Origin: Alphaproteobacteria bacterium
Lineage (GTDB): Bacteria > Pseudomonadota > Alphaproteobacteria > MPNO01 > UBA830
Length of the DNA: 64,000 bases
Direction of reading: 5' to 3'
Assembly (NCBI GenBank): GCA_965243135.1
Contig: OZ251539.1
Coordinates: 5,024,001-5,088,000, forward strand
The translations under genes were made by a program, and so were the position numbers. Below, in pieces: positions 939 through 32,046 of this stretch. The notes under the pieces are model-generated. The model ran no database searches, was not told the DNA's origin, and saw nothing but the letters and a program-made list of their open reading frames with translations. Position 1 is the first letter of the stretch; every line of letters begins with the position of its first letter.

Positions 939-2586
939 CAGAAATTCCCGCTAAGGTGGCCGCCCTTTGCGAAAGGCGCGTCGAGATAGCGTCGTTACCG
1001 AGGGATCAGCCGCCGCGACGCACCTTCCCCGCTTCGGCTTGGTGCCGACTTAGCCTTGACCATCCTGTTTCCCCTGAAAAACTTGCTTTAGCACATTCGG
1101 TCACGGTGCCAGGTCAGGAGGTGTCGTAGGGAATTCCCTCTGCTTTCCGGTATCCAAACGCGATCATTCGGTAGAGTGTTTCCCAGTCCTTCAAGAAGTA
1201 TTCGAGAAACAATCCCCGCGCCTTTTCCCAGAAGTAAATGGGCCGCTTGGCCTTCGTTTGTGCCTGTTGGAACAGTTTGCAACATCGCTGTTGAATCTGG
1301 TCAATCAGGAACGCCAGCATCATCAGGAACGCAAAGACCGTCGACAGATTCTTGTTACCGTGACCGAAGTTGTGCTCAAAGCAGTAGCCTTGGTTCTTCA
1401 GGGTGTTGAAAGTTTCGTTCTCGATCTTCCAGCGCGCCCGCCCGGTGCGCATCAACTCCATCAGGTTCCCTTCGTCAATTGGCAGATCCGTGACCCAGGA
1501 GAAACGTTGTTTCTTACCGTTTGGGAGCTTCTCCCAGTATTCGAGAAAGTTCACTTTGAGGTCGAAGTGCGTATCGTTCAGAGGCACTCCGTTGAGATAC
1601 CGGAATTCGTGCCGTATGTTGTCACCGTCCGTGAACTCCCGGCGCTCCACGGACGGCGCGTTGTTGACCCACTCGAACAGGAATTTGTGGTCGCCGGGCT
1701 TCGCCCCCAGTATGAAACGCATGTCTAACTCCTTGAGAAGATTGACATGTGGTCCGTTCGAGGCCAGCCCATCTTCCAACACAACCAGCTTCAGGTGCGG
1801 GTGTTCACGACGCACATCTTCCAGAAGCCGTTTCGCTGCGTTGCGTTCGCAATCGTTCTTTTTTGCGCCGTCTTCCTTCAGGATCGGTTCCGGTGCAAAC
1901 GGAAAAACCTCCTTTTGTTCCGGATGCACCAGAACGGCCCCCAACATCTGGTGGTAGTAGGTAATCGTACCGTCGCGGTGGTGTTTCTCGCAGCAATTTT
2001 TACAGTGCACCTTGTTCGACGAGAAGTATCCCGTTCCATCGATCGAAAGAGCGTAATGCCCGTTCAGACAAGTGTATTGTTCCAACCCCTTGCCTCGTTG
2101 CAAAACCTGGAACATCTTCGTGAAACAACGCCGCAATTGCCGCGGACAGACTTCGTCAAGCCGTTCGCGCATCGCAGTGTCCGACGGCACGCGCTTGACG
2201 CCGTATAAGGTCGCGAGGTTGTGCCGAACCGCTTCGTCGGCGTGCGCGGCTTCGTCGAATTGCAGAAGCGACGCATACTTCATACCGAACACCGCTAGAC
2301 CCGACATCAGACAGTCCGTCTGGTTCAGCCCCCGGCTCGCGATCGGATCTTCAATACGGTCGAAACAAGCTCGCACTTCCTTCAGCAATCCCGGAGCGCT
2401 GAGCGTCTTGCGCATGCCTGGCATTCTGGCCATTTTGGTACAATCCCGCCTCGCCTTCGGACCACTTTCCAGAGAAAAATGCTCCGCTCGAAGGCAAATA
2501 GCCCCGAATCACCTCGAAAAGTCCACGAAAGACTTTTTTCCGGCCCCATATTTTTCAAGGGTTTCGAGCCTTAGCGGGAATTGCTG
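939..2586 (-). mobile_element. Complete insertion sequence (1648 bp), probably ISNCY family ISMae2-like group
   Basis: 18-bp terminal IRs with 1 mismatch: CAGAAATTCCCGCTAAGG (939-956) and the reverse complement CAGCAATTCCCGCTAAGG (2569-2586). 9-bp target duplication CAGAAGCAC at 930-938 and 2587-2595. CAG ends plus a 9-bp DR match my recollection of the ISMae2 group. Confidence 0.93.
1114..2433 (-). CDS. DDE transposase (439 aa)
   Basis: Intact ORF inside the IRs; motifs LSIDGT, LEDGL and RARWKIENETFNTLK (D, D, E). Confidence 0.93.
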   Translation of the reverse strand: MARMPGMRKTLSAPGLLKEVRACFDRIEDPIASRGLNQTDCLMSGLAVFGMKYASLLQFDEAAHADEAVRHNLATLYGVKRVPSDTAMRERLDEVCPRQLRRCFTKMFQVLQRGKGLEQYTCLNGHYALSIDGTGYFSSNKVHCKNCCEKHHRDGTITYYHQMLGAVLVHPEQKEVFPFAPEPILKEDGAKKNDCERNAAKRLLEDVRREHPHLKLVVLEDGLASNGPHVNLLKELDMRFILGAKPGDHKFLFEWVNNAPSVERREFTDGDNIRHEFRYLNGVPLNDTHFDLKVNFLEYWEKLPNGKKQRFSWVTDLPIDEGNLMELMRTGRARWKIENETFNTLKNQGYCFEHNFGHGNKNLSTVFAFLMMLAFLIDQIQQRCCKLFQQAQTKAKRPIYFWEKARGLFLEYFLKDWETLYRMIAFGYRKAEGIPYDTS

Positions 2587-7733: not shown

Positions 7734-8057
7734 TCAACTCGTAGGTAATTCACAGCCGCCGATATCCTCGAAGTAGACCAGTGCCGGCAGGTTGCGGCGT
7801 TGATGGACGAGTCGCAGGATCACCGGCTCGCTAGCGGCGGCGGTTATCCGCGCAAAGAATATGACGTGCCGTTTGTAGTTCACCGAGCGCAGACCCGCCG
7901 CGAATAAGCTTCGATCACGTCCGCCGATCGGCCGCGATTCCCTCGAAAGCTCGCACCAAACCCCAGTCAACCACTGATCACCGCCCCAAGTCTCGACAGT
8001 ATAGCGCCGGATTTCGTCCAGGTCCCGACGCGCCAGACGGGAGAGTCCGAGCGTCAC
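7734..8057 (-). pseudogene. parE: RelE/ParE-family toxin, damaged
   Basis: LSRLARRDLDEIRRYTVETWG...HVIFF...ILRLVHQRRN. The expected central helix GLVRAFEGIAAD lies in a different frame. Confidence 0.7.
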
Positions 8058-8070
8058 GGCGGAGACCGGA

Positions 8071-8313
8071 TTACCGCAGGCCCGCGTCCGGCTCATAGTC
8101 GCCGGGATCGAATTTGGCGAAGCGCCCGGCCTCCGCCTCGCGCACCGCCTCTTCCAGATCCGCTTTCAGCCTGCAGAACTGACGCGCCCCGTCCCGCTCC
8201 ATCAGCAACCGGATCCCCGCACGCACCACTTCGCTCAAATTGGCGTAGGCGCCGGATTCGATCCGGCCTTGAACATAAGATTCCATCGATTCGGTCAGGC
8301 GTACGTTCGGCAT
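8071..8313 (-). CDS. parD: ParD-family (RHH) antitoxin
   Basis: NVRLT...IESGAYANLSEVVRAGIRLL signature; directly upstream of parE. Confidence 0.85.
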   Translation of the reverse strand: MPNVRLTESMESYVQGRIESGAYANLSEVVRAGIRLLMERDGARQFCRLKADLEEAVREAEAGRFAKFDPGDYEPDAGLR

Positions 8314-8419
8314 CCGAGCTACCCCCATATCCTCAATGGCGTCAGATACTGACCGGCGACGCCATATCGGTCAATTCTCGAACTTTTGCGGACTGCCCTT
8401 CGCCGGATTGCTTTCGTCC

Positions 8420-9000
8420 GGCGGTTCATCGGCAAGGCGACATCGAGGCGGCCACAGCAAGAGCGGCTTGCGATTCCGTAACTTTCCGGGCGAAGCCTTG
8501 CGAGCGCCGCAACGGCAAGGCCGTGCAGATCCTCAAGGTCCGCCTTGCGGAAGTCGGGCGTCTTCGGAAAGCACTGGCGGCCCGGCCCGTTCGCGTGCTC
8601 GTTTAGCCCGCGTTGTCGGCGCGGTCGAGCGAAGAAAAACGACGCCTTCAGAGCTTCCGCGGGCCGCGAACTCCTTGACCGGACGCCGGCATGCGCCCGT
8701 TTCCTCGGCCGGCCTTCAGGCACGGCCAGCAACGTAAACTTGGAGGCGGGGTTCGCCAGCGACAGCACGGCGCGCCCGTGTCGCCGTCCCAGTTCCCGAT
8801 CCGGGACTTCTCGGCCTTCGGACGCATGTCCACCCGACGCGGTCGCGGCGCTTCCCGCCGCTTCGCCAGGAGCGCCGCCGACTTCCTGTCGTCCCGTGTG
8901 TGCCTGTAGATCCGTTAACCGTGAACCCGCCGCGCAGGCGTCCCGGCTCCGGCCTCCACCGCTGCGCCAGCTTGCCGGCCGCTTCGTCCCACCGGGTCAC
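8420..9000 (-). mobile_element. Eroded IS30-family transposase remnant (ends approximate)
   Basis: Fragments in several frames: KLAQRWRPE, IYRHTRDDRK, RPKAEKSRIGNWDGDT, ASKFTLLA and FFFARP..RGLNEHANG..RQCFPK..DF. Confidence 0.7.
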
Positions 9001-23459: not shown

Positions 23460-23727
23460 CTTGCTGCGGGCAGCTATCGTGCGCGCGGCGCGGTGCGGAA
23501 ATCGGCGGTCACACTGGACTTATGCAAGAGCATCCAGGCCACGCGACCGGGCTGGCGCTTCTTTCCGTCACCAGTCAGCGCGGCTCGGTCAAGCTTGTGA
23601 TCGCTCGGATAGCGTGCGCATCCTGGATCGCACGCCAGGCTTTCGCCGACGACGTGCCGTTTCCGCAAGGGCTTCGTCGCTACGAACGATTCCAGCGGCG
23701 TCGGTCCAAGCAGGGGTGGTTTCCCGT

Positions 23728-24213
23728 TCATTGGCTCAATGTCTTCCGCAAGTCCTTCATGAGCAAGAACAGGTGATGGGGAACCGTGGGACTCGGCTCG
23801 AATTCCAAGGCTTCGTACCATGCCCGCGCCTCTTCGTCCTTGGCATGGACGAGGAGCGACGCCGACGATGTCGGCGGCCGTGGCGGTTCTGAGCAGAGCA
23901 TCCTCGACGAGCGCCTTGCCCAAGCCGCGCCCTTGACAGGTTCGGTCGATCGCGAGACGAGCGAGGGGCAACACCGGAACCGCATGCTTGGCCAACCCTT
24001 TGCCGATAGGCGCAGAGGCATGCTCCACCGCTCCCGTCGCGAGGCTGTAGTAACCAAGCACTGCGGATTCCCGGCAGACGACATAAGTCCGGGCGCTTTC
24101 GGCCTTCCGACTCGCCAGCGCGAACCGCTTCAGAAAACGGTTGAGCGGTTCCTTCCCGCAATCATCTCGCGTTGCCTCGAGTTTCTCGACCGATCCCCAT
24201 GCTCCGATATCAC
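23728..24213 (-). pseudogene. GNAT acetyltransferase toxin (TacT/AtaT-like), at least two frameshifts
   Basis: The pieces DCGKEPLNRFLKRFA...LGYYSL...LARLAID..QGRGLG and LLVHAKDEEARAWYE...LFLL lie in different frames from each other and from the GTG start at 24213. Confidence 0.85.
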
Positions 24214-24485
24214 TCCAGTACGCTCTTCTCAGCGAGCAATCGGGCCAAGCGCGGCTTGCCGACGACCGGGCGGTCGAGAATATCCCGGAAGGTTCGCCAC
24301 CGCCGTTCGTCGAGGCGGAACATCCGACGGTCGATCAGGGCGTCCTCGGCAGCGTTGATTCCTGCCTCGAGCAGAAACTCCGCAACGCTCTTGCGCGACG
24401 ATGCCGCAGCTTGCTGCAGCAACGCCTTTGTGCCCGGGGTGGCCCGAACCTCTATGTGCTCCGACTTGTTTTCGGCGATGGCCAC
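24210..24485 (-). CDS. DUF1778 (TacA/AtaR-like) antitoxin
   Basis: KSEHIEVRAT..KALLQQAA...F...LD.P...PRLARLL; GGAGG RBS and GTG start; GTGA overlap with the toxin. Confidence 0.85.
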   Translation of the reverse strand: MAIAENKSEHIEVRATPGTKALLQQAAASSRKSVAEFLLEAGINAAEDALIDRRMFRLDERRWRTFRDILDRPVVGKPRLARLLAEKSVLE

Positions 24486-24636
24486 GAACGTTCCTCCAAT
24501 CGGCTCGGTCGGCATTCTACAATACGGATACTGTACGGACAATAGCTCGTCGACTCGATTTCGATTCACCTTCCTCCTTCCTCTAACCGTTCAGTGTTCG
24601 AATCTGAAACTGACGGCTCGGTACAAAATAATGACT

Positions 24637-25701
24637 TTATTGATCAGTAAGATGTTCTAGATGCAAAACTCTCTCCCTAATTTCAATATTCTCTTGGCGC
24701 AACTTTTCATTTTCTCGTACAAGCTCGTTAATTTTATCATACATTACCTTCGAGGTTGCGTCCATTTTTTCTGTGTTGGTGATTGTTTTTTCTGTAACTA
24801 ACTCTATTTTCTTCCTAATCTCTGGAACTAGGGAATTGTATATTCCAGTTACGTTGCTATAAAATCCTCGAAAAAGAACAAAAACAGCGACTAAAAATGC
24901 CGCTATAGCAACTATACTATATCCTTGAATCTTCTTGACAGTTTTCGCAAATTTCTCCGCCTTTTCCTCAGATTTTCTTGCGCTTTTTTCGGCACTACTT
25001 GCCACTAATGGAATAGAGCTTCGAATTGGGACTTCAGCCTTATTTTCGTCAAACTGTCTGGCGGCCTTATTTATATAGTCACGAATATCGTCCCAAAATT
25101 TCTTGTCTTCTTTATAAAGAGCTTTTTGGCCGAGTTTCCCGGAGCTAGACGTCTTTGTCAATTCTACCCAAATGAGGCCTTCGTTTCTCGGTATAGCGTA
25201 GTCTTCATCCGTTAAATTGTGGAGGGGAATGCATAATTTCCCCCAAAATCCCGGGTCAACTAATGGTCCAGTCCCCAATAAAATACCTCGGTGCACATGC
25301 CGGATTTGAAGATTGAACCTCATCGCAATGAAGTTAGGAAGACGAAAATCTAGATCACATTCTACAAAGACTATAGAATTAGCTTTGACTATGAGATCCT
25401 TATCTCCTAATACTCTTTCTAACTTACCTTTGTCATTATATTTGTAGGCGTGACGGCCGATACGCCCTTCGTAAGATGCCTTCTTTAATCGCGATTTTTC
25501 CCTACCACCACAATAGAATGGTGAAATTGCTCCCGTTTTGTCTACATACTTCATTATTTCATCAGCAGAAAGAAGTGCAGGTTCGACATCCGGAAAAGGA
25601 TCTACTTGACCAGAATTTATAAAATCATTCGCCCGTCGTTCTCCGTCACTCCTGTCCAGTATTTTTTGATCCCTACTATTCTTGGTATTCATATCAGACA
25701 T
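24637..25701 (-). CDS. dCTP deaminase/dUTPase-fold protein (degenerate active site) with C-terminal TM helix and coiled coil
   Basis: LLS..EI, ASYEGRIG, RLP..IA, VDPGFWG and HNLT motifs; hydrophobic YSIVAIAAFLVAVFVLF; heptad-rich C-terminus. Confidence 0.8.
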   Translation of the reverse strand: MSDMNTKNSRDQKILDRSDGERRANDFINSGQVDPFPDVEPALLSADEIMKYVDKTGAISPFYCGGREKSRLKKASYEGRIGRHAYKYNDKGKLERVLGDKDLIVKANSIVFVECDLDFRLPNFIAMRFNLQIRHVHRGILLGTGPLVDPGFWGKLCIPLHNLTDEDYAIPRNEGLIWVELTKTSSSGKLGQKALYKEDKKFWDDIRDYINKAARQFDENKAEVPIRSSIPLVASSAEKSARKSEEKAEKFAKTVKKIQGYSIVAIAAFLVAVFVLFRGFYSNVTGIYNSLVPEIRKKIELVTEKTITNTEKMDATSKVMYDKINELVRENEKLRQENIEIRERVLHLEHLTDQ

Positions 25702-26732
25702 ATCTCCGATTCGATGATTCTAGATCCAGAAAATCCGCACCAATCAACTTTTTTACCAATATCTAATTCAATTCGATCAATGAATTTTCTAAGACCGCTG
25801 TTCGGATTCTTAATGTCTTGCTCCACGCCAACATAATCGAGATGATTCAAAACCAGTCGATTCGGCGTGTTGACATCAAGAGCGCGTTTTACGATTTCGG
25901 AATTAAAATAGCCAACCCTGCGCAATTTTCCGGTAACGGTCGTATATTCGCGCAAATCACTTTGGCATTCGATTTTACTGGCGATTTCTTCCCATGTCGT
26001 TTCCTCGGGAAGAGGACCGGAATCCCCGGCAACCCGGATCGGATAAGAGCGAATGACCATTGTGATATCATCGACATCCATGGGGCTCAATCCGGCTTCC
26101 GACAGAGCGCCGGCGGCTGTAGTAGATCGAGAAGTTGCTTTAGGCCAGTAACCGCCTTCGAGCAAAGAAAGCCCGAAACCCTGCGTGCCTTCTATGACGA
26201 CGCGGTTCCCGCTCTCGATTCGCTCGCGAAGATAACTCGATGTATCTTTGACATAACTCTCCAATCGAGCGTGATCTTCTGCAAACGCCGAGCGCAAAGG
26301 GAAATTCGCCGCTTCGCGAGCGACGGAAGCCATGACCGCGGCGCCCACGCCCGATCCGGTGGAGCCGATCGTTTCCGTCAATCCTGCTGCCTTCTCCCAT
26401 TCCCGATGTTCCGCCCTGATGATATGGGCGTAAGCGCTGACATGAATGCGATCCCGCGGATAATCGAGCTTTTCGATCTCGGTCAGCAGCACATCGACAT
26501 CGATATAAGATCCCGCCGGCAGCACCACATCAACATTCCCGTCGACGCAAGCGGCCGGAAGCTGGCGCAAAACGTGCTTCGTTCCCGATCTATCGTAAGC
26601 CGTATGCCCGGAATTAGGCCCCCCGACGCGCACCGCGACAGCCGGGGCTCTTGAGCGCCTCACTATTTCCAAGGCTACCTTTCCCTTGCCCTCCGAGCCG
26701 AACTGACCCCCGATCACGATCGAAACAGGCAT
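25689..26732 (-). CDS. Short-form adenylosuccinate synthetase homologue, PurZ/PurZ0-like (347 aa)
   Basis: GGQFGSEGKG, GGPNSGHT, IGSTGSGVG, IEGTQGFGLS, PIRVAG.SGPL, TTVTGKLRRVG and NHLDY motifs. Confidence 0.85.
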   Translation of the reverse strand: MPVSIVIGGQFGSEGKGKVALEIVRRSRAPAVAVRVGGPNSGHTAYDRSGTKHVLRQLPAACVDGNVDVVLPAGSYIDVDVLLTEIEKLDYPRDRIHVSAYAHIIRAEHREWEKAAGLTETIGSTGSGVGAAVMASVAREAANFPLRSAFAEDHARLESYVKDTSSYLRERIESGNRVVIEGTQGFGLSLLEGGYWPKATSRSTTAAGALSEAGLSPMDVDDITMVIRSYPIRVAGDSGPLPEETTWEEIASKIECQSDLREYTTVTGKLRRVGYFNSEIVKRALDVNTPNRLVLNHLDYVGVEQDIKNPNSGLRKFIDRIELDIGKKVDWCGFSGSRIIESEICLI

Positions 26733-28636
26733 GGTTCCGTTCCCTTGTCCTGAATGCGCCCAGCATATCGTTCGATATCCGACATGTCGCCATCATTGAC
26801 GAAAATATCATGCGCAGATGACATCAGCTCGCCGACCCTTCTTTCGACTTCCGCGTTCGATGTCTTGTCGAAGCCGACATCGCCGTCGCGCAGGTCGAAT
26901 CTCATGCGCCGCGTCTTTTCCGGCGCGTCAATGTACACATGAAAAAAGCGAACCCCGAACCGCTCGACCATAAAAGCGTTGTCGTCCGGAAACCGCAAGC
27001 CGTCGACAACGATCTTCTCGGCGGCGCCTGCCAGCTTGATCGTCTGTTCGTTCAACCAACGCTGACGCCCGGAGGCATTGATTTCCTCGCCGAGCGTCTG
27101 CCGATTGGATCGGGTAAGCGGACGATTTTCTGCCTTCAGCATGTCGTCCAGAACCAGACTGAACCGCGTATATGAGAATCCCTTGCGCTCCAGTATGCGT
27201 GCAAGGGTGGTTTTGCCGGCGGCGATAGGTCCGCTGACGCCGACCACTACAGCCGTTGGTTCCCTTTCGAGCCGCGGAATGATGAGGGGCGGTTCTTCTT
27301 CGGTTCCAAGCGCCTCCGACATGCCGGCCATATGAAACGTGCCGACGAGAGCCGACGTGATCGCGTCGAGTTCGTCATGGGTTACCTTCTGTGTTTCGAA
27401 AGCGCCGGTTATTCCGAATTCCCGCAACCCCGCTTTCAGCCACTCCTCTCCGGCGCCTTTGCGCGGAATGCGCATGATGTCCTGGGCAGCGCCGGGATAG
27501 CTTTCGATCACCGGTATGCCGCGTTCGCGGAACGTCCGCGCGAGCCGCATGCCCCTCGCCGTCAACTTCTGCATGCTTTGAATGAGACAGGGATAGACGT
27601 TCACCCCGCGTCGCTTGAGCACGCGTTCGGATTGGCGCATGATTCCAAATTCCGCCCGCCCCGGATCGTCGTCCTCCACCGAAATGCGTCCCGCGGGAAG
27701 ACACAGGGGAGAATCGATCGAGACGATGTGCGGAAGGGCGCGACTCGTCTTTTCGATCAGGTCTTCGTCCGAGGACACCAAGGCCACGCAGGCCTCGCGT
27801 CCGTGAAGCAGACACCAGCCGCTGGGTCGTTCCTCTGCGCCTGTAAGATCGATGCCGACGACCCGCAGATCCGCGAATGCGTCATCGAACAGATCTTTGA
27901 AGTGCGAACGCTTCGCGGTGAACGCGGCGGGCGGCGGCGACGCCTTTGGCAAATTTCTCCAGCCCGAAGGGGCCGACCAATCGACAAAGCATGTATTTTC
28001 AACGAACATATCCGATTGTCCGCCTATGCGGGACACGGCCTCGTCGAAAATCGCCCCCATTGCCGCGATGTCGATTCGATTGTAGTGAATCAGTTTATGT
28101 AATGCGTTCCGATCTCCACGAACGTATTTGTGCCACAACAAAACCGCTTCAGCCCCGTCCATTTCCGGCAGTTCGTCCCGCAAATCGACGCCGATCTCCT
28201 TTTCGATAGCTTTCTGGCCTCCTGTCAGACCAACTCGCCTGCAAAGATACATGAGATCGACATGCGTTTCCGGAAATACGACTTCTGGGTATTCCTTCTT
28301 GATGAATTTTGCGTCGAAGCGGATCCCGTTAAAGGTCACCAGCGCCTTTGCGCGGCTCGCATCTTCATGTAACGGGGTAGGATCTTGTCCTTTGATGATC
28401 GTCTTGGCGGTTCCTTCAAAAGACCATCCGATGACGGTAATTTCGTCGTAGTAATGGCTGAGGCCTGTCGTCTCTATATCCAAGAATAGAACGAGTTCTG
28501 GGAATGAAGCGCAAACGCCGAGCTGACGACGCAACTTCCGTGGGATCGTCTTCTTCCCTTTTCCGGTTTTGCGCTCCGTTATCGGGCTGCGTGAATCTCG
28601 GGGGTCTGCAATTGCGGTGCCGCTCATCCTCTTCAT
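26714..28636 (-). CDS. Fusion: RNase_H_2/DEDD 3'-5' exonuclease + DUF429 RNase H-fold nuclease + P-loop nucleotide kinase
   Basis: FLDIETTG / FNGIRFD / YNRID; VGIDL / SIDSPL / IESYP / DELDAI; GPIAAGKTT / VVDGLR / IDAP. Confidence 0.82.
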   Translation of the reverse strand: MKRMSGTAIADPRDSRSPITERKTGKGKKTIPRKLRRQLGVCASFPELVLFLDIETTGLSHYYDEITVIGWSFEGTAKTIIKGQDPTPLHEDASRAKALVTFNGIRFDAKFIKKEYPEVVFPETHVDLMYLCRRVGLTGGQKAIEKEIGVDLRDELPEMDGAEAVLLWHKYVRGDRNALHKLIHYNRIDIAAMGAIFDEAVSRIGGQSDMFVENTCFVDWSAPSGWRNLPKASPPPAAFTAKRSHFKDLFDDAFADLRVVGIDLTGAEERPSGWCLLHGREACVALVSSDEDLIEKTSRALPHIVSIDSPLCLPAGRISVEDDDPGRAEFGIMRQSERVLKRRGVNVYPCLIQSMQKLTARGMRLARTFRERGIPVIESYPGAAQDIMRIPRKGAGEEWLKAGLREFGITGAFETQKVTHDELDAITSALVGTFHMAGMSEALGTEEEPPLIIPRLEREPTAVVVGVSGPIAAGKTTLARILERKGFSYTRFSLVLDDMLKAENRPLTRSNRQTLGEEINASGRQRWLNEQTIKLAGAAEKIVVDGLRFPDDNAFMVERFGVRFFHVYIDAPEKTRRMRFDLRDGDVGFDKTSNAEVERRVGELMSSAHDIFVNDGDMSDIERYAGRIQDKGTEPCLFRS

Positions 28637-28989
28637 GCCGTCACCTTCCGAGCGATCCGTGCGCCTGACGGCTTCCGTTCACCGATTTCCTCATTCGCAT
28701 GCCAAGTCTGCTGACAAATCCAGACTCGCCGGAAGATTCCGCCTTGTGCCGACGAACGTCATCAGGCCGCCGACTCGATGCTCCGCCTCGCCCCGGTTGT
28801 CCAGCATGTCATTATTAGCCTTCGCCGTTCCGATGCAAACCGTTTCCGGCCGTTTCCCCTCGGTATCTTGATCCGGGGAACGCCTCGGTCGCCCAGCCTC
28901 TTGCTTCCAGTCTACCAACTGTCGAGAATGACGGGTATGCTTGAACTTGTAAAACGGTATCCACAGCCAGCTTTGAGGAACGACCTACA

Positions 28990-31900
28990 TTGACGCAGCT
29001 TGCTCAGACATGGACGCAAGGAACATCTCCCCTGCCGACGTCGGGGAACCGGGACGCGCTGGAAGTTCACAGGGAACGTTGGCTGGAAGCGGGCCAGCGC
29101 CGCGACGATGCGTTCGCTCAGGACGCTTTGGAGGCGGCGGGCGAGCTGCTCGACGCTGTATTCGGCAACAGCCCGTATCTCAGCCATAGCCTGATCACCG
29201 ATCTTCCGTTCGCTCGGCTGTTGATCGAGAGCGGCCCGGACGCCGCCTATGAGGCGGCCCTTGGCGCGGTGCGCGACGGTGGCGATCCGGGAAACGAATC
29301 CGGGCGGGACTTGATGAAGCGCCTCCGGGTCGCCAAGCGTCAAGCCGCTCTTGCGATCGGTATGGCCGACATCGCTTCGGTCTGGCCGCTGGAACGGGTG
29401 ACCGGAGCGTTGGCGGACTTCGCGTCTGCGGCCCTGAGCGCGAGTTGCCGCCATCTGCTGCGCGAATTGCATAGAAGAGGCCGCTTCGCCCTGCCCGATC
29501 CCGACGACCCGGAAAAGGAGTCCGGCCTGATCGTCCTCGGCATGGGCAAGTTGGGCGCGCGCGAACTCAACTATTCCAGCGATATCGACCTGATCCTGCT
29601 CTTCGACCCGGAGACGACCCCGTATACGGGAGACGGCGATCTGCAGCAGACGTTCACGCGGCTTGCCCGCAACCTGGTGTCCCTGATGGACGAACGCACG
29701 GCGGACGGATACGTGTTCCGCACCGACCTCCGGCTCCGGCCCGATCCGGGGTCGACTGCGCCCGCGATCTCGACCCATGCGGCCGAAATGTATTACGAGA
29801 GCGCCGGGCAGAACTGGGAGCGCGCCGCCATGATCAAGGCGCGCCCGGTCGCCGGCGACGTCCCGCGGGGCGAGGCGTTTCTCGAAGTGCTTCAGCCGTT
29901 CATGTGGCGACGGCATCTCGATTTCGCCGCCATTCAGGACATCCAGTCGATCAAGCGGCAGATCAACGCGCACCGGGGCGGCGGCCAGATCGCCATCGAA
30001 GGACACAACGTCAAGCTGGGACGAGGCGGCATCCGCGAAATCGAGTTTTTCGCGCAGACGCAGCAACTGATCTGGGGCGGCCGCGACAGAGCGCTGCGAA
30101 CGAGAGGAACTCTGGAGGCGATCGACAAGCTCGTCGCCGCCGGGCACGTGGCGCGGTCGACCGCGAACGAGCTGGCGGCGGCCTACGACTTCCACCGCAG
30201 GCTCGAGCACAGGCTGCAGATGATCGACGACCGCCAGACCCACAGCCTGCCGGAGGACGAAACCGAACTGGCGGGCGTCGCGGCGTTTTCGGGGTTCGAC
30301 TCTACACAGGCCTTTCGCGACGCGGTTCTCGAACAGCTCAGGACCGTTGAGCGGCACTACGCGGCATTGTTCGAAGACGAGCCGGATCTGTCAGGGCCGG
30401 GCAATCTGGTTTTCACCGGCGGCGAGCACGATCCGGATACACTGACGACCCTCTCGGAAATGGGCTACGCCGAACCCGAACGGGTTTCGACGATGATACG
30501 AGCCTGGCATACCGGCCGGTATCGCGCCATGCAAAACACCCGTGCGCGGGAAATGCTGACCGAGCTCACTCCGGCGATCCTGGAGGCGTTCTCCGACTCG
30601 CCCGATCCCGATTCGGCGCTGCTGCGGCTCGACCGGCTCCTCTTGCGCTTGCCCGCCGGAATCCAGCTTTTTTCGCTTTTCACGGCCCATCCGGGGCTGT
30701 TCGAACTCGTCGCGGAGATCATGGGATCCGCTCCCCGTCTGGCCAACACTCTGAGCCGCCATCCGGCATTGCTCGACAGCGTATTGAGCCGCAATTTCAC
30801 CGACCTGCAAATTCCCGATGCCGAAGAACTGGGAGAAGAACTCGCGGACGCCGCTCGCCGAGGACTGATTCGGCTGTTTTACTCTCGGGAATACGGCATC
30901 GAGGAGATGAAGGCCGAGCTTTCGAACGCAGCCCGCGACGCCCGGGACTTCCAGGACTTCCTCGAAATCGAAAGGCGCTGGGCGAGCGACAGAATATTCC
31001 AGATCGGCGTGCACATGCTCAGGGGCCTCTTCTCGCCGACGGAAGCGGGGCGCCCGCTCTCGGATATCGCCGACGTCTGCCTCGGCGCTCTTCTGCCCGT
31101 CATCGAAAACGAGTTCGCGGCGACCTACGGACGCGTGCTAGGCGGCAAGGTCGCGCTCGTCGCCTTCGGCAAGCTGGGCAGCCGTGAAATGACGGTGAGT
31201 TCCGACCTGGACCTCATGTTCGTATACGATCACGATGCCGAAGCCACTGGCTCGGACGGAAAAAAATCCCTTTCTCCCGGCCAATATTACGCGCAGCTGT
31301 GCCGTCGCTTCATCGGCGCGGTTACCGCGCAGACGGCGGACGGCAAGCTGTACGAGGTGGACATGCGTCTCCGCCCGACCGGCAATGCCGGCCCCATCGC
31401 CACGTCGTTCGAAGCCTTCGAGAAATACCAGCGTTCGGAAGCATGGACCTGGGAACATCAGGCCCTGACCCGGGCGCGCGTGGTCTACGCCGAGAGCGAC
31501 CTCGAAGAGCGGATCGACGCCATGACCAGATCCGTTCTGGCGCTCCCCCGAAACCGCGAAGAGCTTGCGGGCGAGGTCGCCGGAATGCGCGAACGCATCC
31601 AGCGGGAACATGGCACCGACGACATCTGGTCGACCAAGCACGTTCGAGGCGGGCTTGTGGACGCCGAGTTCATCGCCCAATTCCTGCAGCTGACGCATGC
31701 GGCGGAGATTCCCGAAATTCTCGCAGGCGATCCCATCTCCGTGTTCGAAATCGCGCGGAAGCGCGAACTGATGGATGCCGAAACGGCGCGCAAGCTTACG
31801 GACGCCGTAACCCTCTGGCGCAATCTCCAGGGCATCCTGCGCCTGACGGTGGAAGGCGACTTCGTCGAAGAGAAGGCGCCGCATGGCCTGAAGAGGGTCG

Positions 31901-32046
31901 TCATGCGGTCTTGCGGCGTCAAGGAATTCGATCAGCTGAAACAGATGGCCCAACAGGCGGCAAAGGACACCGCTGCGCAGTTCGAGGCGCTGATCGGAAC
32001 CCCCGACGATTCCCCGGGCGACGCCGCTTCCGCGAACGGCGCATAA
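28990..32046 (+). CDS. glnE: Bifunctional glutamine synthetase adenylyltransferase/removing enzyme
   Basis: Two NTase halves (GMGKLGARELNYSSDIDL; FGKLGSREMTVSSDLDL), DLRLRP, WERAAMIKAR and GGIREIEF. Confidence 0.95.
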   Translation: MTQLAQTWTQGTSPLPTSGNRDALEVHRERWLEAGQRRDDAFAQDALEAAGELLDAVFGNSPYLSHSLITDLPFARLLIESGPDAAYEAALGAVRDGGDPGNESGRDLMKRLRVAKRQAALAIGMADIASVWPLERVTGALADFASAALSASCRHLLRELHRRGRFALPDPDDPEKESGLIVLGMGKLGARELNYSSDIDLILLFDPETTPYTGDGDLQQTFTRLARNLVSLMDERTADGYVFRTDLRLRPDPGSTAPAISTHAAEMYYESAGQNWERAAMIKARPVAGDVPRGEAFLEVLQPFMWRRHLDFAAIQDIQSIKRQINAHRGGGQIAIEGHNVKLGRGGIREIEFFAQTQQLIWGGRDRALRTRGTLEAIDKLVAAGHVARSTANELAAAYDFHRRLEHRLQMIDDRQTHSLPEDETELAGVAAFSGFDSTQAFRDAVLEQLRTVERHYAALFEDEPDLSGPGNLVFTGGEHDPDTLTTLSEMGYAEPERVSTMIRAWHTGRYRAMQNTRAREMLTELTPAILEAFSDSPDPDSALLRLDRLLLRLPAGIQLFSLFTAHPGLFELVAEIMGSAPRLANTLSRHPALLDSVLSRNFTDLQIPDAEELGEELADAARRGLIRLFYSREYGIEEMKAELSNAARDARDFQDFLEIERRWASDRIFQIGVHMLRGLFSPTEAGRPLSDIADVCLGALLPVIENEFAATYGRVLGGKVALVAFGKLGSREMTVSSDLDLMFVYDHDAEATGSDGKKSLSPGQYYAQLCRRFIGAVTAQTADGKLYEVDMRLRPTGNAGPIATSFEAFEKYQRSEAWTWEHQALTRARVVYAESDLEERIDAMTRSVLALPRNREELAGEVAGMRERIQREHGTDDIWSTKHVRGGLVDAEFIAQFLQLTHAAEIPEILAGDPISVFEIARKRELMDAETARKLTDAVTLWRNLQGILRLTVEGDFVEEKAPHGLKRVVMRSCGVKEFDQLKQMAQQAAKDTAAQFEALIGTPDDSPGDAASANGA

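Follow-up and report, generated by a model that had tools for sequence, protein, structure and literature searches.

What do three overlapping minus-strand genes do on a small, AT-rich island of an alphaproteobacterial chromosome, and is the nucleotide chemistry that they seem to encode directed against phage? The window, that is, the whole stretch of DNA analysed, is 64,000 nucleotides long. A preliminary description had reported overlaps of 19 and 13 bp between the genes, and the open reading frames bear this out to the base (A/B, 26714-26732; B/C, 25689-25701). The order along the minus strand is A, B, C, and the features of the locus are as follows.

23461..28989, no strand: inserted island of about 5.5 kb, flanked by glnE and by the gene for the beta subunit of a Rieske dioxygenase
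24210..24569, minus: TacA-type antitoxin gene (PF08681, E 2.9e-20), in the island, 67 nt downstream of C
24637..25701, minus: gene C, 354 aa; Dcd/dUTPase-fold domain, coiled-coil stalk and one TM helix
24637..24861, minus: C residues 281-354 and stop; predicted coiled-coil tail beyond the membrane
24862..24918, minus: C residues 262-280; predicted single TM helix, continuous with a helical stalk (residues ~232-261)
25009..25701, minus: C residues 1-231; nucleotide-binding domain of the Dcd/dUTPase fold, with an invariant pocket specific to the family and the motif 'IRSSIP' in its C-terminal arm
25689..26732, minus: gene B, 347 aa; short adenylosuccinate-synthetase homologue of the PurZ group (Ser13)
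26714..28636, minus: gene A, 640 aa; fusion of exonuclease, DUF429 nuclease and NMP-kinase-like domains
26744..27259, minus: A residues 460-631; P-loop nucleoside-monophosphate-kinase-like domain (AAA_18, E 2.4e-8)
27317..27874, minus: A residues 255-440; DUF429 RuvC-clade RNase H-like domain
28040..28489, minus: A residues 50-199; DEDDy 3'-5' exonuclease domain (PF13482, RNase_H_2, E 2.5e-30)
28811..28839, minus: promoter-like site upstream of A in the A-glnE intergenic region, a 9/12 consensus match only
28990..32046, plus: glnE, flanking the island

The island was shown directly to be an insertion, since the matches to its two flanks lie only 220 bp apart in a genome of the same genus (G003), against a dioxygenase-glnE gap of 5694 bp in the window. 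Across gene C and the 3' end of B (24500-25999) the GC content was 0.39-0.41; it rose to 0.50-0.61 between 26000 and 28999 and to 0.62-0.71 in the flanks, confirming the AT-richness noted earlier. The genes had been placed between a toxin-antitoxin relic and glnE; the insertion and the antitoxin gene were recovered, but no toxin partner was recognisable in the five ORFs tested (23461-24358), so that the label of a relic is plausible only. The ORFs neighbouring the antitoxin gene matched nothing in Pfam or PADLOC. The island carried neither an integrase gene nor genes for transfer or replication, and no phage genes were found around the operon. Phage queries for DpoZ, DutZ, DatZ and MazZ, two of which were N-terminal pieces only, gave no match in the window; the preliminary description had noted the absence of datZ, mazZ and dpoZ. 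The window also holds an McrBC-like island, 6.5 kb from the operon.

The domains first assigned to A, B and C all held. The full-length A fusion was present in 36 of 37 genome loci. Its exonuclease residues D53, E55, D108, Y185 and D189 were invariant across 37 sequences, and the profile of this domain matched the MrfB exonuclease (E 1.2e-4). The middle domain matched DUF429 weakly (16.1 bits, E 0.0097; the Pfam cut-off is 23) and PADLOC model PDC-S44 with an E value of 1.8e-5; D263, D308, H420, D421, E422 and D424 were invariant, and the DUF429 family has been classed as likely nucleases (PMC3985635). In the kinase-like domain the motifs G474-K475-T476 and D545-G546-x-R548 were invariant, and the closest structure was an AdkA-like protein of S. 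solfataricus with AMP (3LW7; profile E 8.4e-6; Foldseek E 2.2e-6, TM 0.82). Judged from its sequence, A combines two intact nuclease active sites with an NMP-kinase-like domain. There was no match to A in 50,697 phage records.

Protein B matched the Pfam family Adenylsucc_synt (E 2.3e-50). Ser13, which takes the place of the catalytic Asp of PurA, was invariant in all 36 homologues, and the best PDB match was PurZ0 (7VF6, E 4.9e-51), with archaeal PurA and PurZ ranking below; both results fit the PurZ0-like identity first proposed. Among solved structures, the nearest relative of B is thus the PurZ0 of Gordonia phage Archimedes. Against the NCBI PurZ model B scored 243 bits, below the cut-off of 300, its identity to phage proteins was at most 40%, and the bacterial B proteins formed a separate clade in the tree (support 99/99). 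A canonical purA (502 bits) was present elsewhere in the same genome, and B is, by its sequence, a PurZ-group enzyme distinct from the cell's own PurA. On balance, B probably makes a 2-aminoadenine-type nucleotide.

Protein C matched the dCTP_deam model TIGR02274 at E 6e-6, far under the cut-off of the model, and its fold matched dUTPase and Dcd-DUT enzymes (best 8Y1W, E 6.6e-10). The deaminase Glu and the phosphate-binding Ser-Ser motif are replaced by family-specific invariant residues. C had been called degenerate, and the loss of the Glu stands, but this does not make the protein inactive: the closest solved structure is that of an active archaeal dUTPase which likewise lacks the Glu, and the motif-III Asp (D149; the general base of dUTPase) is invariant even in an outlier of 23% identity. 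Since D149 is kept, while KomB of the Kongming system has lost its catalytic Asp, C may still hydrolyse nucleotides. Of 133 full-length family members, 131 have a hydrophobic 19-mer corresponding to the TM helix, its median start being residue 262, followed by a tail with a median length of 66 aa and a poorly conserved sequence; the predicted model is helical through residue 353. A homotrimer was predicted with a score of 0.87 (best control 0.00), a level that was attained for 20 of 30 proteins with structures solved as pairs and for 1 of 23 solved as single chains, with at least 87% contact agreement between runs, partner pLDDT of at least 81 and heptad-spaced contacts from residue 230 to 284. 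For the N-terminal domain the score may merely echo known structures, because dUTPase trimers have been solved. In the predicted trimer the invariant residues line inter-subunit pockets, and the C-terminal arm leads directly into a trimeric helical stalk, the membrane helix and a short outer coiled coil. The family comprises 592 representatives at E<=1e-30; C itself had no match in 50,697 phage records and none in IMG/VR. BLASTP against DutZ gave E 0.02, a likeness at the superfamily level at most, and at six loci the DutZ of Wayne gave a weak match to gene C (E 2e-4 to 1e-2). C may be a receptor-effector rather than an enzyme, at somewhat less than even odds.

Loci were collected by means of C. 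All three genes occurred together in 36 of 37 genome loci, in keeping with the three-gene unit proposed earlier, and were collinear as A-B-C in 35; L029 is rearranged. The outlier L037, 26% identical, pairs a C-like protein with a ThyX-like enzyme and has no kinase. Among 26 metagenome loci of the family, several of them duplicates of genome loci, 25 had B next to C and 18 also showed A; of the eight others, seven were ended by a contig edge and one, L059, has a truncated B. The genes are intact and their catalytic motifs invariant across at least 34 diverged loci (45-73% identity), and decay was seen at two loci, L014 and L022, both of which have a stop in A, while B of L014 is also frameshifted. 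The distribution is patchy: C was absent from all 60 relatives searched, and the B tree conflicts with taxonomy, with an Acidobacteriota MAG and two Gammaproteobacteria falling among Alphaproteobacteria. A-B-C is almost certainly a real functional module.

The preliminary description had pointed to a defence-island context, and defence genes were indeed frequent neighbours. Type I restriction-modification genes were found in 10 loci, RmrA-like genes in four, SoFic in three and HipA in three, together covering 16 of 36 loci, counts that carry no background control. In the other 20 loci, 114 flank ORFs included matches to Lamassu, MADS, type II restriction-modification and several PDC candidates. 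A gene for an RlmJ-type methyltransferase adjoins the operon in nine loci. Neither B nor C is covered by a PADLOC model. We found no published description of the three-gene system in the literature searched, in agreement with what had been surmised. The operon is likely a defence or conflict system, and is a strong candidate for bench work.

How might such a system act? We tentatively favour a horizontally mobile, three-gene conflict system, most likely anti-phage, which works through a base-modified deoxynucleotide in Kongming-like signalling, with C damaging the membrane. Upon infection, the DEDDy exonuclease of A, aided by the RuvC-like domain, would free 5'-dNMPs from free-ended DNA. B would then join dGMP and aspartate into N6-succino-2-amino-dAMP, which host PurB would turn into dZMP, and the kinase domain of A followed by host Ndk would yield the di- and triphosphate of the product. 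This nucleotide, foreign to normal metabolism, would occupy the pockets of C and the 'IRSSIP' arms would close; the stalk would relay the movement to the membrane helices, leading to membrane damage and aborted infection. A sensor of dITP is known in KomB, a HAM1 pyrophosphatase without catalytic activity (bioRxiv 10.1101/2024.12.20.629578), and production of Z nucleotides is toxic to E. coli (PMC8342488). On the other side, a single membrane helix per subunit is a thin effector, an infection-specific trigger is not evident when the kinase is self-encoded, and some dGMP is always present in cells. The interpretation given in the preliminary description is thus partly supported: its signalling idea has a precedent in KomB, where an inactive NTP pyrophosphatase binds a dNTP with a modified base, but an enzymatic role of C had not been weighed.

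Such a role is central to a serious rival, which we consider somewhat unlikely, in which the operon converts or poisons the nucleotide pool much as phages do. Here C would correspond to DutZ or MazZ and, as an active pyrophosphatase, take dGTP and perhaps dATP to the monophosphate; B would make the succinylated dZMP precursor from dGMP, and A would degrade DNA to dNMPs with its nucleases and re-phosphorylate the modified nucleotide with its kinase. Loss of dGTP and dATP, DNA breakdown and Z incorporation would then harm phage and cell without any signal. This is a simpler reading of B and C, given that PurZ0 is paired with the Dut-fold dATP/dGTP pyrophosphatase DutZ in 98 of 98 PurZ0 phage genomes (PMC12884076). 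PurZ receives its dGMP from MazZ, and the datZ-mazZ-purZ cluster is toxic and turns A into Z in E. coli DNA (PMC8342488); defence by nucleotide depletion has likewise been reported (bioRxiv 10.1101/2021.04.26.441389). The active dUTPase as top structural match, the invariant D149 and the weak Wayne DutZ matches at six loci point the same way, as does L037, where the partner of the C-like protein is a ThyX-like enzyme that uses dUMP; a pyrophosphatase that feeds an enzyme modifying dNMPs would account for this pair no less well than signalling would. However, pool conversion leaves without a role the membrane helix and the coiled coil beyond it, both retained by 131 of 133 members, the Ser-Ser motif is replaced, the likeness to DutZ is at superfamily level (E 0.02), and the phage queries revealed no DatZ-, MazZ- or DpoZ-like gene with the operon. 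Constitutive conversion would also poison the host, so a trigger would still be needed.

It is improbable that the module instead serves the mobile element or its host, either as a salvage-modification cassette that places some 2-aminoadenine in carrier DNA against restriction or by recycling DNA. The operon does sit on a small inserted island, with an RlmJ-type methyltransferase gene beside it at nine loci, and phage Z is known to shield DNA, 53% of 147 restriction enzymes being reportedly blocked or hindered on dZ-DNA (PMC12944874). Yet the island lacks integrase, transfer and replication genes, the Z-specific polymerase and dATPase are absent, and the surroundings consist of defence and toxin-antitoxin genes, not of the backbone of an element; moreover, the membrane anchor of C is left unexplained and two nuclease domains with intact active sites would be risky salvage cargo. 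Very improbable is a decaying Z-genome prophage remnant, or a redundant paralogue from purine biosynthesis that forms no system with its neighbours, as the identity of B to phage PurZ0 (up to 40%) and the decay at L014 and L022 might suggest. Operon conservation brings this close to refuted, with three intact genes and invariant motifs at the diverged loci; in addition, the C family is large, A and C have no phage relatives, the B clade is bacterial and well supported, and the genome has its canonical purA.

Compared with known systems, the favoured signalling system has the same architecture as CBASS, Pycsar, Thoeris II and the type III CRISPR effectors Cam1/Csx23, in which one or more nucleotide-making enzymes accompany a ligand-binding domain fused to membrane helices, and which are carried in mobile defence islands. 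It differs from them in its dUTPase-like trimeric sensor fold and its proposed linear, base-modified signal, and Pfam and PADLOC found no CD-NTase, cyclase, TIR or Cas10 in the operon. Defensive nucleotide-depletion enzymes (dCTP deaminase with a kinase domain, dGTPase) likewise target the deoxynucleotide pool, and the A kinase domain weakly matched the kinase part of the PADLOC dCTPase model (E 3.6e-6). The dCTP deaminase used in defence, however, is one polypeptide whose catalytic domain is of the zinc cytidine-deaminase type; the Dcd/dUTPase fold of C is unrelated to it, and C has lost the deaminase Glu. The PurZ0 branch of the phage Z pathway (PurZ0, DutZ/DmtZ and DpoZ) also sets a Ser-for-Asp PurA homologue beside a gene for a dUTPase-superfamily protein, and DNA breakdown and dNMP phosphorylation are classic steps of phage pool reprogramming. 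Unlike that branch, the operon is chromosomal, lies in defence islands and lacks DpoZ, DatZ, MazZ and DmtZ; B is at most 40% identical to phage proteins, in its own bacterial clade, and C is membrane-anchored and of the Dcd rather than the Dut type. In PUA-Calcineurin-HAD (bioRxiv 10.64898/2026.01.15.699771), a non-canonical deoxynucleotide released by DNA degradation, m6-dAMP, is the danger signal, much as is proposed here; the available part of that text names no dUTPase-fold, DUF429 or kinase partner, and the operon has no PUA, calcineurin or HAD domain. As to Kongming (KomABC), no component is homologous: it consists of an adenosine deaminase (PF00962), HAM1 (PF01725) and SIR2, where this operon has the nuclease-kinase fusion A, the PurZ-type synthetase B and the Dcd/dUTPase-fold protein C. 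The modified base would also be a different one. The trigger of Kongming is a borrowed phage kinase while this operon encodes its own, its effector depletes NAD+ while the candidates here are only the membrane helix of C or the nucleases of A, and KomB lost the catalytic Asp where C retains the motif-III Asp. What the two have in common is a three-gene operon in defence neighbourhoods, an enzyme that modifies a deoxynucleoside monophosphate at its base, the need for a nucleotide kinase to arrive at the triphosphate and a receptor, putative in the case of C, with the fold of a house-cleaning NTP pyrophosphatase.

The three genes under study are a fusion of an exonuclease, a DUF429 domain and an NMP-kinase-like domain (gene A), a synthetase of the PurZ group (gene B) and a membrane protein with a Dcd/dUTPase fold (gene C), and they form a module that is conserved, mobile and situated among defence genes, and that is undescribed in the literature searched. 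The three open reading frames lie on the minus strand where the preliminary description had placed them, with the overlaps of 19 bp (A and B) and 13 bp (B and C) that it reported. The features of the window are as follows.

24210..24569, minus strand: TacA-type antitoxin gene (PF08681, E 2.9e-20), 67 nt downstream of C and on the same strand
24637..25701, minus strand: gene C, ORF of 354 aa
25689..26732, minus strand: gene B, ORF of 347 aa
26714..28636, minus strand: gene A, ORF of 640 aa
35134-42244, minus strand: second low-GC island (GC 0.46-0.58) with four large ORFs

The greater AT-richness of the operon was likewise borne out, with GC values of 0.39-0.41 and 0.50-0.61 against 0.62-0.71 in the flanks. 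The change within the operon is sharp, from 0.39-0.41 over C and the final ~300 nt of B to 0.57-0.61 over the remainder of B and over A, and this break (24500-26000 versus 26000-28640) suggests that the cassette acquired its present C end by exchange with a donor of lower GC. Upstream of the operon lies glnE, in divergent orientation, and beyond the TacA-type gene lie the alpha and beta genes of a Rieske dioxygenase. In a genome of the same genus that lacks the insertion (G003), the end of the dioxygenase match and the start of the glnE match are 220 bp apart, compared with 5694 bp in the window, so that the island spans ~23461-28989 and includes the TacA-type gene. No toxin partner for this antitoxin was recognisable in the neighbouring ORFs; those in the ~750 bp beyond it (23461-24200) had no match to any family, and a decayed GNAT toxin gene possibly lies there. 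No tRNA genes were found in the window, and no convincing flanking or terminal repeats at the island ends. The locus is chromosomal, and a prophage context was rejected because no phage genes were seen in the operon flanks. The second low-GC island lies at a distance of 6.5 kb from the first genes described and probably encodes a restriction module of the McrBC type; it contains a 633-aa ORF with an AAA_5 McrB-like domain (PADLOC PDC-M26A, E 7.6e-37) and, adjoining it, a 516-aa DUF2357 ORF.

A search of 185,579 species genomes with C produced 37 loci. A, B and C occur together in 36 of these, as expected if the three genes form a unit, and are collinear in 35, the exception being the rearranged locus L029; the 37th (L037) carries a 26%-identical C outlier and has neither A nor B. 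Of 27 metagenome loci, several of which duplicate genome loci so that they are not independent, 26 belong to the C family. B adjoins C in 25 of the 26, the remaining contig starting inside C, while 18 showed A; among the eight that did not, contig ends cut seven, and the last (L059) has a truncated B. Decay is rare: B is frameshifted at L014, and A is interrupted by a stop there and at L022. C was not found in any of the 60 relatives searched (4 of the same genus, 21 of the same family and 35 of the same order). Phage records gave no match to A or C and IMG/VR none to C, and the matches to C in plasmids consisted of three partial ones from Sinorhizobium.

B is homologous to the short (archaeal-type) adenylosuccinate synthetases (PF00709, E 2.3e-50) and scores below every curated cut-off, with 244.8 of the 368 bits set for archaeal-type PurA (NF003295), 197.8 of 395.6 for bacterial PurA and 243.4 of 300 for the NCBIfam PurZ model NF038379. 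Its best solved relative is 7VF6 (E 4.9e-51) of Gordonia phage Archimedes, identified as PurZ0 in PMC12884076, followed by P. horikoshii PurA (6.5e-46), phiVC8 PurZ (5e-32), S-2L PurZ (8e-30) and E. coli PurA (8e-28). Members of the PurZ group are marked by a serine that replaces the catalytic aspartate of PurA, and PMC12884076 reports it for 147 of 147 phage sequences. B reads GSEGKG against the GDEGKG of PurA, and S13 is invariant in all 36 aligned sequences (the frameshifted L014 was omitted); the same change was found in the eight phage PurZ and PurZ0 proteins fetched, out of eight. The genome's own PurA, encoded elsewhere on the chromosome (502 bits), keeps the aspartate, and since this canonical purA exists, B as the housekeeping enzyme was rejected.

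Relatives of B were present in 213 phage records, mostly of Arthrobacter PurZ0 phages, at an identity of at most 40%. In a maximum-likelihood tree the bacterial B sequences form a clade (99/99) beside PurZ0 (100/99) and PurZ (99/98) and outside both, although with a long outgroup branch and archaeal PurA not among the sequences, the branching order of the three Ser-type clades was supported only at 88/55. The tree cuts across taxonomy, with an Acidobacteriota MAG and two Gammaproteobacteria among the Alphaproteobacteria. Locus L001 comes from a Bryobacterales MAG (Acidobacteriota). The earlier designation of B as PurZ0-like therefore holds for the serine and the best match to 7VF6, and fails for the PurZ cut-off and the placement relative to the phage clades; on these sequence grounds we name B a bacterial PurZ-type clade and not PurZ0. 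The GenBank depositors' note on the PurZ of Vibrio phage phiVC8 (phiVC8_p27; L048) reads 'similar to Solibacter usitatus [YP_827486]', so that annotation has long pointed to relatives of PurZ in bacteria. PurZ-group enzymes join dGMP and aspartate to a succinyl precursor of dZMP (Z being 2-aminoadenine), and host PurB and kinases complete dZTP, as described in PMC8342488. The reaction that defines PurZ and PurZ0 converts dGMP, Asp and NTP to N6-succino-2-amino-dAMP. With the queries used, no DpoZ-, DatZ- or MazZ-like gene was matched in the window or in the 37 loci, which agrees with the reported lack of dpoZ, datZ and mazZ.

The domains of A (all on the minus strand) are listed by residue.

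Residues 50-199: exonuclease domain (PF13482, E 2.5e-30)
Residues ~255-440: DUF429-like RNase H-fold domain (PF04250, E 0.0097, 16.1 bits and thus below the Pfam gathering cut-off of 23; PADLOC PDC-S44, E 1.8e-5)
Residues ~460-631: P-loop kinase domain, from the domain search

Across 37 aligned sequences the DEDDy set of the exonuclease (D53, E55, D108, Y185, D189), the RuvC-like acidic residues of the middle domain (D263, D308, D421, E422 and D424, with H420), and the GKT P-loop and DGxR motif of the kinase are all invariant. The profile of A matches the B. subtilis exonuclease MrfB (E 1.2e-4), and the kinase part resembles 3LW7, an AMP-bound, adenylate-kinase-related protein of Sulfolobus (profile E 8.4e-6; Foldseek E 2.2e-6, TM 0.82). 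The structural search used the whole A model (mean pLDDT 83, pTM 0.79), and kinase-domain matches dominated its listing. Residues 258-443 form an alpha/beta core in this model; the profile search of the PDB with A yielded no match for the DUF429 part. DUF429 has been assigned to the RuvC/resolvase clade of RNase H-like proteins, with nuclease activity predicted for it (PMC3985635).

C is, by its modelled fold, a member of the trimeric dUTPase/Dcd superfamily. The AlphaFold model (20 homologues, pLDDT 74.8) has a beta-rich domain to about residue 200 and a single long helix at 230-353, and with this domain the top Foldseek match was 8Y1W, the dUTPase of Thermococcus pacificus (E 6.6e-10), followed by many chains of bifunctional Dcd-DUT enzymes and of Dut. 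C scores 26.1 bits against the dCTP deaminase model TIGR02274, whose cut-off is 92.8. The catalytic glutamate of dCTP deaminase we take to lie in the (I/L)TLE(L/I) strand, and on that basis the matching strand of C, LCIPLHN, has a proline at its position; a true dCTP deaminase was thus rejected on the missing glutamate and the score far under the cut-off. The HMMER alignment to 8Y1W shows the motif-III aspartate retained as D149, in VDPGFWG, and all of 27 sequences compared have it, a 23%-identical outlier included. In that alignment QIRHVH occupies the position of the Arg-Ser-Ser phosphate motif (motif II), and an R-S-S triplet reappears in the C-terminal arm (I226-R227-S228-S229). The proline, the QIRHVH residues and some thirty others are invariant in the family, as is the IRSSIP segment (226-231) that directly precedes the long helix. 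A membrane-type hydrophobic 19-mer is present in 131 of 133 stored full-length members, with a median start at residue 262 and ~66 residues after it.

Folding three copies of C (residues 1-300) gave a score of 0.87 and a best control of 0.00; of proteins whose structures were solved as pairs, 20 of 30 attained the mark, as did 1 of 23 whose structures are single chains. Contacts agreed between the runs to at least 87%, with a partner pLDDT of at least 81. In the trimer model invariant residues of different subunits come into contact (71-75 with 149-150; 135-139 with 157-161), the arm at 224-233 lies packed against a neighbouring subunit, and contacts at heptad spacing continue through the membrane helix, over residues 230-284. 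Memory of solved dUTPase trimers may explain the result for the N-terminal domain; the predicted stalk has no such template. The number of family representatives is 4263 at E<=1e-3, 1711 at E<=1e-10, where more distant C-like proteins are included, and 592 at E<=1e-30; almost all of the best 150 are 300-450 aa long with the domain N-terminal, and no fusions to other effector domains were seen among them. Three loci carry two diverged copies of C (L008:5687-6748, L011:5726-6787 and L029:10594-11892(-)), 40-52% identical to that of the window, and mixed trimers are a possibility there. The C-like protein of L037 (6878-7741(+), 287 aa) shares with C the Dcd-like domain, the membrane helix and the coiled coil. 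Its gene overlaps a ThyX-like gene (7738-8502(+)) by 4 bp, a tyrosine-integrase-like ORF adjoins, and the same sequence recurs in L077. From this pair, which comes from one organism, it would seem that the dNMP-modifying enzyme coupled to a membrane-anchored Dcd-like protein can vary.

Around the 36 loci, flank ORFs were called greedily, the longest first and with a GC3 weight, and not by a gene finder; they were then clustered, and the scan took a single representative from every recurrent cluster. Ten loci have type I restriction-modification genes, four have RmrA-like HTH-peptidase genes, and SoFic and HipA are found in three each, jointly covering 16 of the 36; these counts, which have no background rate, serve as context and not as a statistic, and to that extent the defence-gene surroundings hold. 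Among the 114 flank ORFs of the other 20 loci, matches at E<=1e-10 included Lamassu (LmuA, LmuB, LmuC), MADS, type II restriction-modification, DpdH and several PADLOC candidates. A recurrent fourth gene of ~250 aa (gene D), absent from the window, accompanies the operon in 13 of 36 genome loci and in 10 of the 26 from metagenomes, directly next to it or within it, in some between B and C. It has the conserved motifs GDxGDYxK, GDGRH, FDPDNG and RRGSCRH, no Pfam match at E<=1, and unnamed clusters as its nearest in the ESM Atlas. Immediately upstream of A, nine loci have an N6-adenine methyltransferase gene of the RlmJ type (PF04378, E 1e-64), to which D has no profile likeness (hhalign probability 0.5%), and eight have a 97-121-aa ORF of no known family. 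The loci with either are mostly from Rhizobiales; both genes may be part of a longer version of the island, with GC below that of the surrounding genome.

L008:8154-8861(+), L019:5077-5832(-), L029:8070-8834(+), L067:5164-5949(+) and others: gene D
L008:1385-2239(+) and 2250-2540(-): RlmJ-type gene and small ORF, at matching positions in L005, L010, L011, L015, L018, L025, L027 and L032

The mechanism we prefer, at somewhat less than an even chance, is one of signalling, in which a base-modified deoxynucleotide is sensed by C. A would release dNMPs, B would modify dGMP, and the kinase of A would raise the product; C would read it in its remodelled pockets, and closure of the arms would be transmitted along the stalk as far as the membrane helices. 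Since every part is thereby given a role, the retention of the membrane helix in nearly all members is explained. Kongming offers a parallel, in which a dAMP deaminase and a nucleotide kinase produce dITP, whose receptor KomB is an NTP pyrophosphatase of the HAM1 type that is no longer catalytic (bioRxiv 10.1101/2024.12.20.629578). That bacteria domesticated phage Z-base chemistry as an alarm, with a PurZ-type enzyme, a nuclease-kinase supply and a dUTPase-fold trimer as sensor and killer, is a bolder proposal and less likely than not. The messenger would be a 2-aminoadenine or succinyl-2-aminoadenine deoxynucleotide, foreign to normal metabolism, which the fused A would supply and phosphorylate and which the membrane-anchored C trimer would sense, killing the infected cell.

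The invariant motif-III aspartate of C and the fact that its closest solved structure is an active dUTPase speak for another account, in which C is a pyrophosphatase, the counterpart of DutZ or MazZ, and feeds B, the harm coming from loss of dGTP and dATP, DNA breakdown and incorporation of Z. The C-like and ThyX-like pair of L037 also favours it, in that it resembles an arrangement in which a dUTPase feeds thymidylate synthase. DutZ, a Dut-fold enzyme that converts dATP and dGTP to monophosphates, is encoded in 98 of 98 PurZ0 phage genomes (PMC12884076), and expression of the phage Z cluster is toxic in E. coli (PMC8342488). Such conversion of the pool leaves the membrane anchor of C unexplained, and we give it a somewhat lower chance than signalling; neither it nor signalling points to an infection trigger.

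To our knowledge, phages alone have until now been known to use PurZ chemistry, as a route to restriction-proof Z-DNA, whereas here a distinct bacterial clade of the enzyme group is tied into a conserved, horizontally spread operon amid defence genes. If the operon is an immune system, bacterial immunity may thereby gain a further non-canonical deoxynucleotide as messenger and a sensor-effector design of a new kind, or alternatively hosts may be turning the phages' own pool-reprogramming pathway against them. Were the alarm reading true, it would be a second independent case of immune signalling by a base-modified deoxynucleotide, with a new messenger, sensor fold and effector type. The operon also gives a function-bearing context to DUF429, the PF13482 exonucleases and the Dcd-like family of C, all poorly understood.

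In PADLOC-DB v2.0.0 (2023), B and C match no family and A has weak partial matches, to the dCTPase kinase part (3.6e-6, the best), PDC-S44, DEDDh (3.8e-5) and VakA (1e-4). Nor did the literature searched describe a defence role for a PurA/PurZ-type enzyme accompanied by a DUF429 fusion or by a membrane protein of dUTPase fold, in keeping with the preliminary description, to whose author the architecture was not known; the supplement of 10.64898/2026.01.15.699771 may show a related adenylosuccinate-synthetase operon. Kongming consists of an adenosine deaminase (KomA, PF00962), a HAM1 protein (KomB, PF01725) and a SIR2 protein (KomC, PF13289), none of which is found in A, B or C, and its likeness to the operon is one of logic only. 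Phage PurZ and PurZ0 are encoded beside DpoZ and enzymes that remove dATP or dGTP, whereas the operon is chromosomal and, with the queries used, has no DpoZ-, DatZ- or MazZ-like match. In CBASS, Pycsar and Thoeris the signal synthase is a CD-NTase, a cyclase or a TIR protein, and none was matched in the operon. By no component, then, is it Kongming, CBASS, Pycsar or Thoeris, and by analogy we rate it a putative nucleotide-based conflict system with all components new to defence, whose closest relatives are Kongming and the phage Z pathway.
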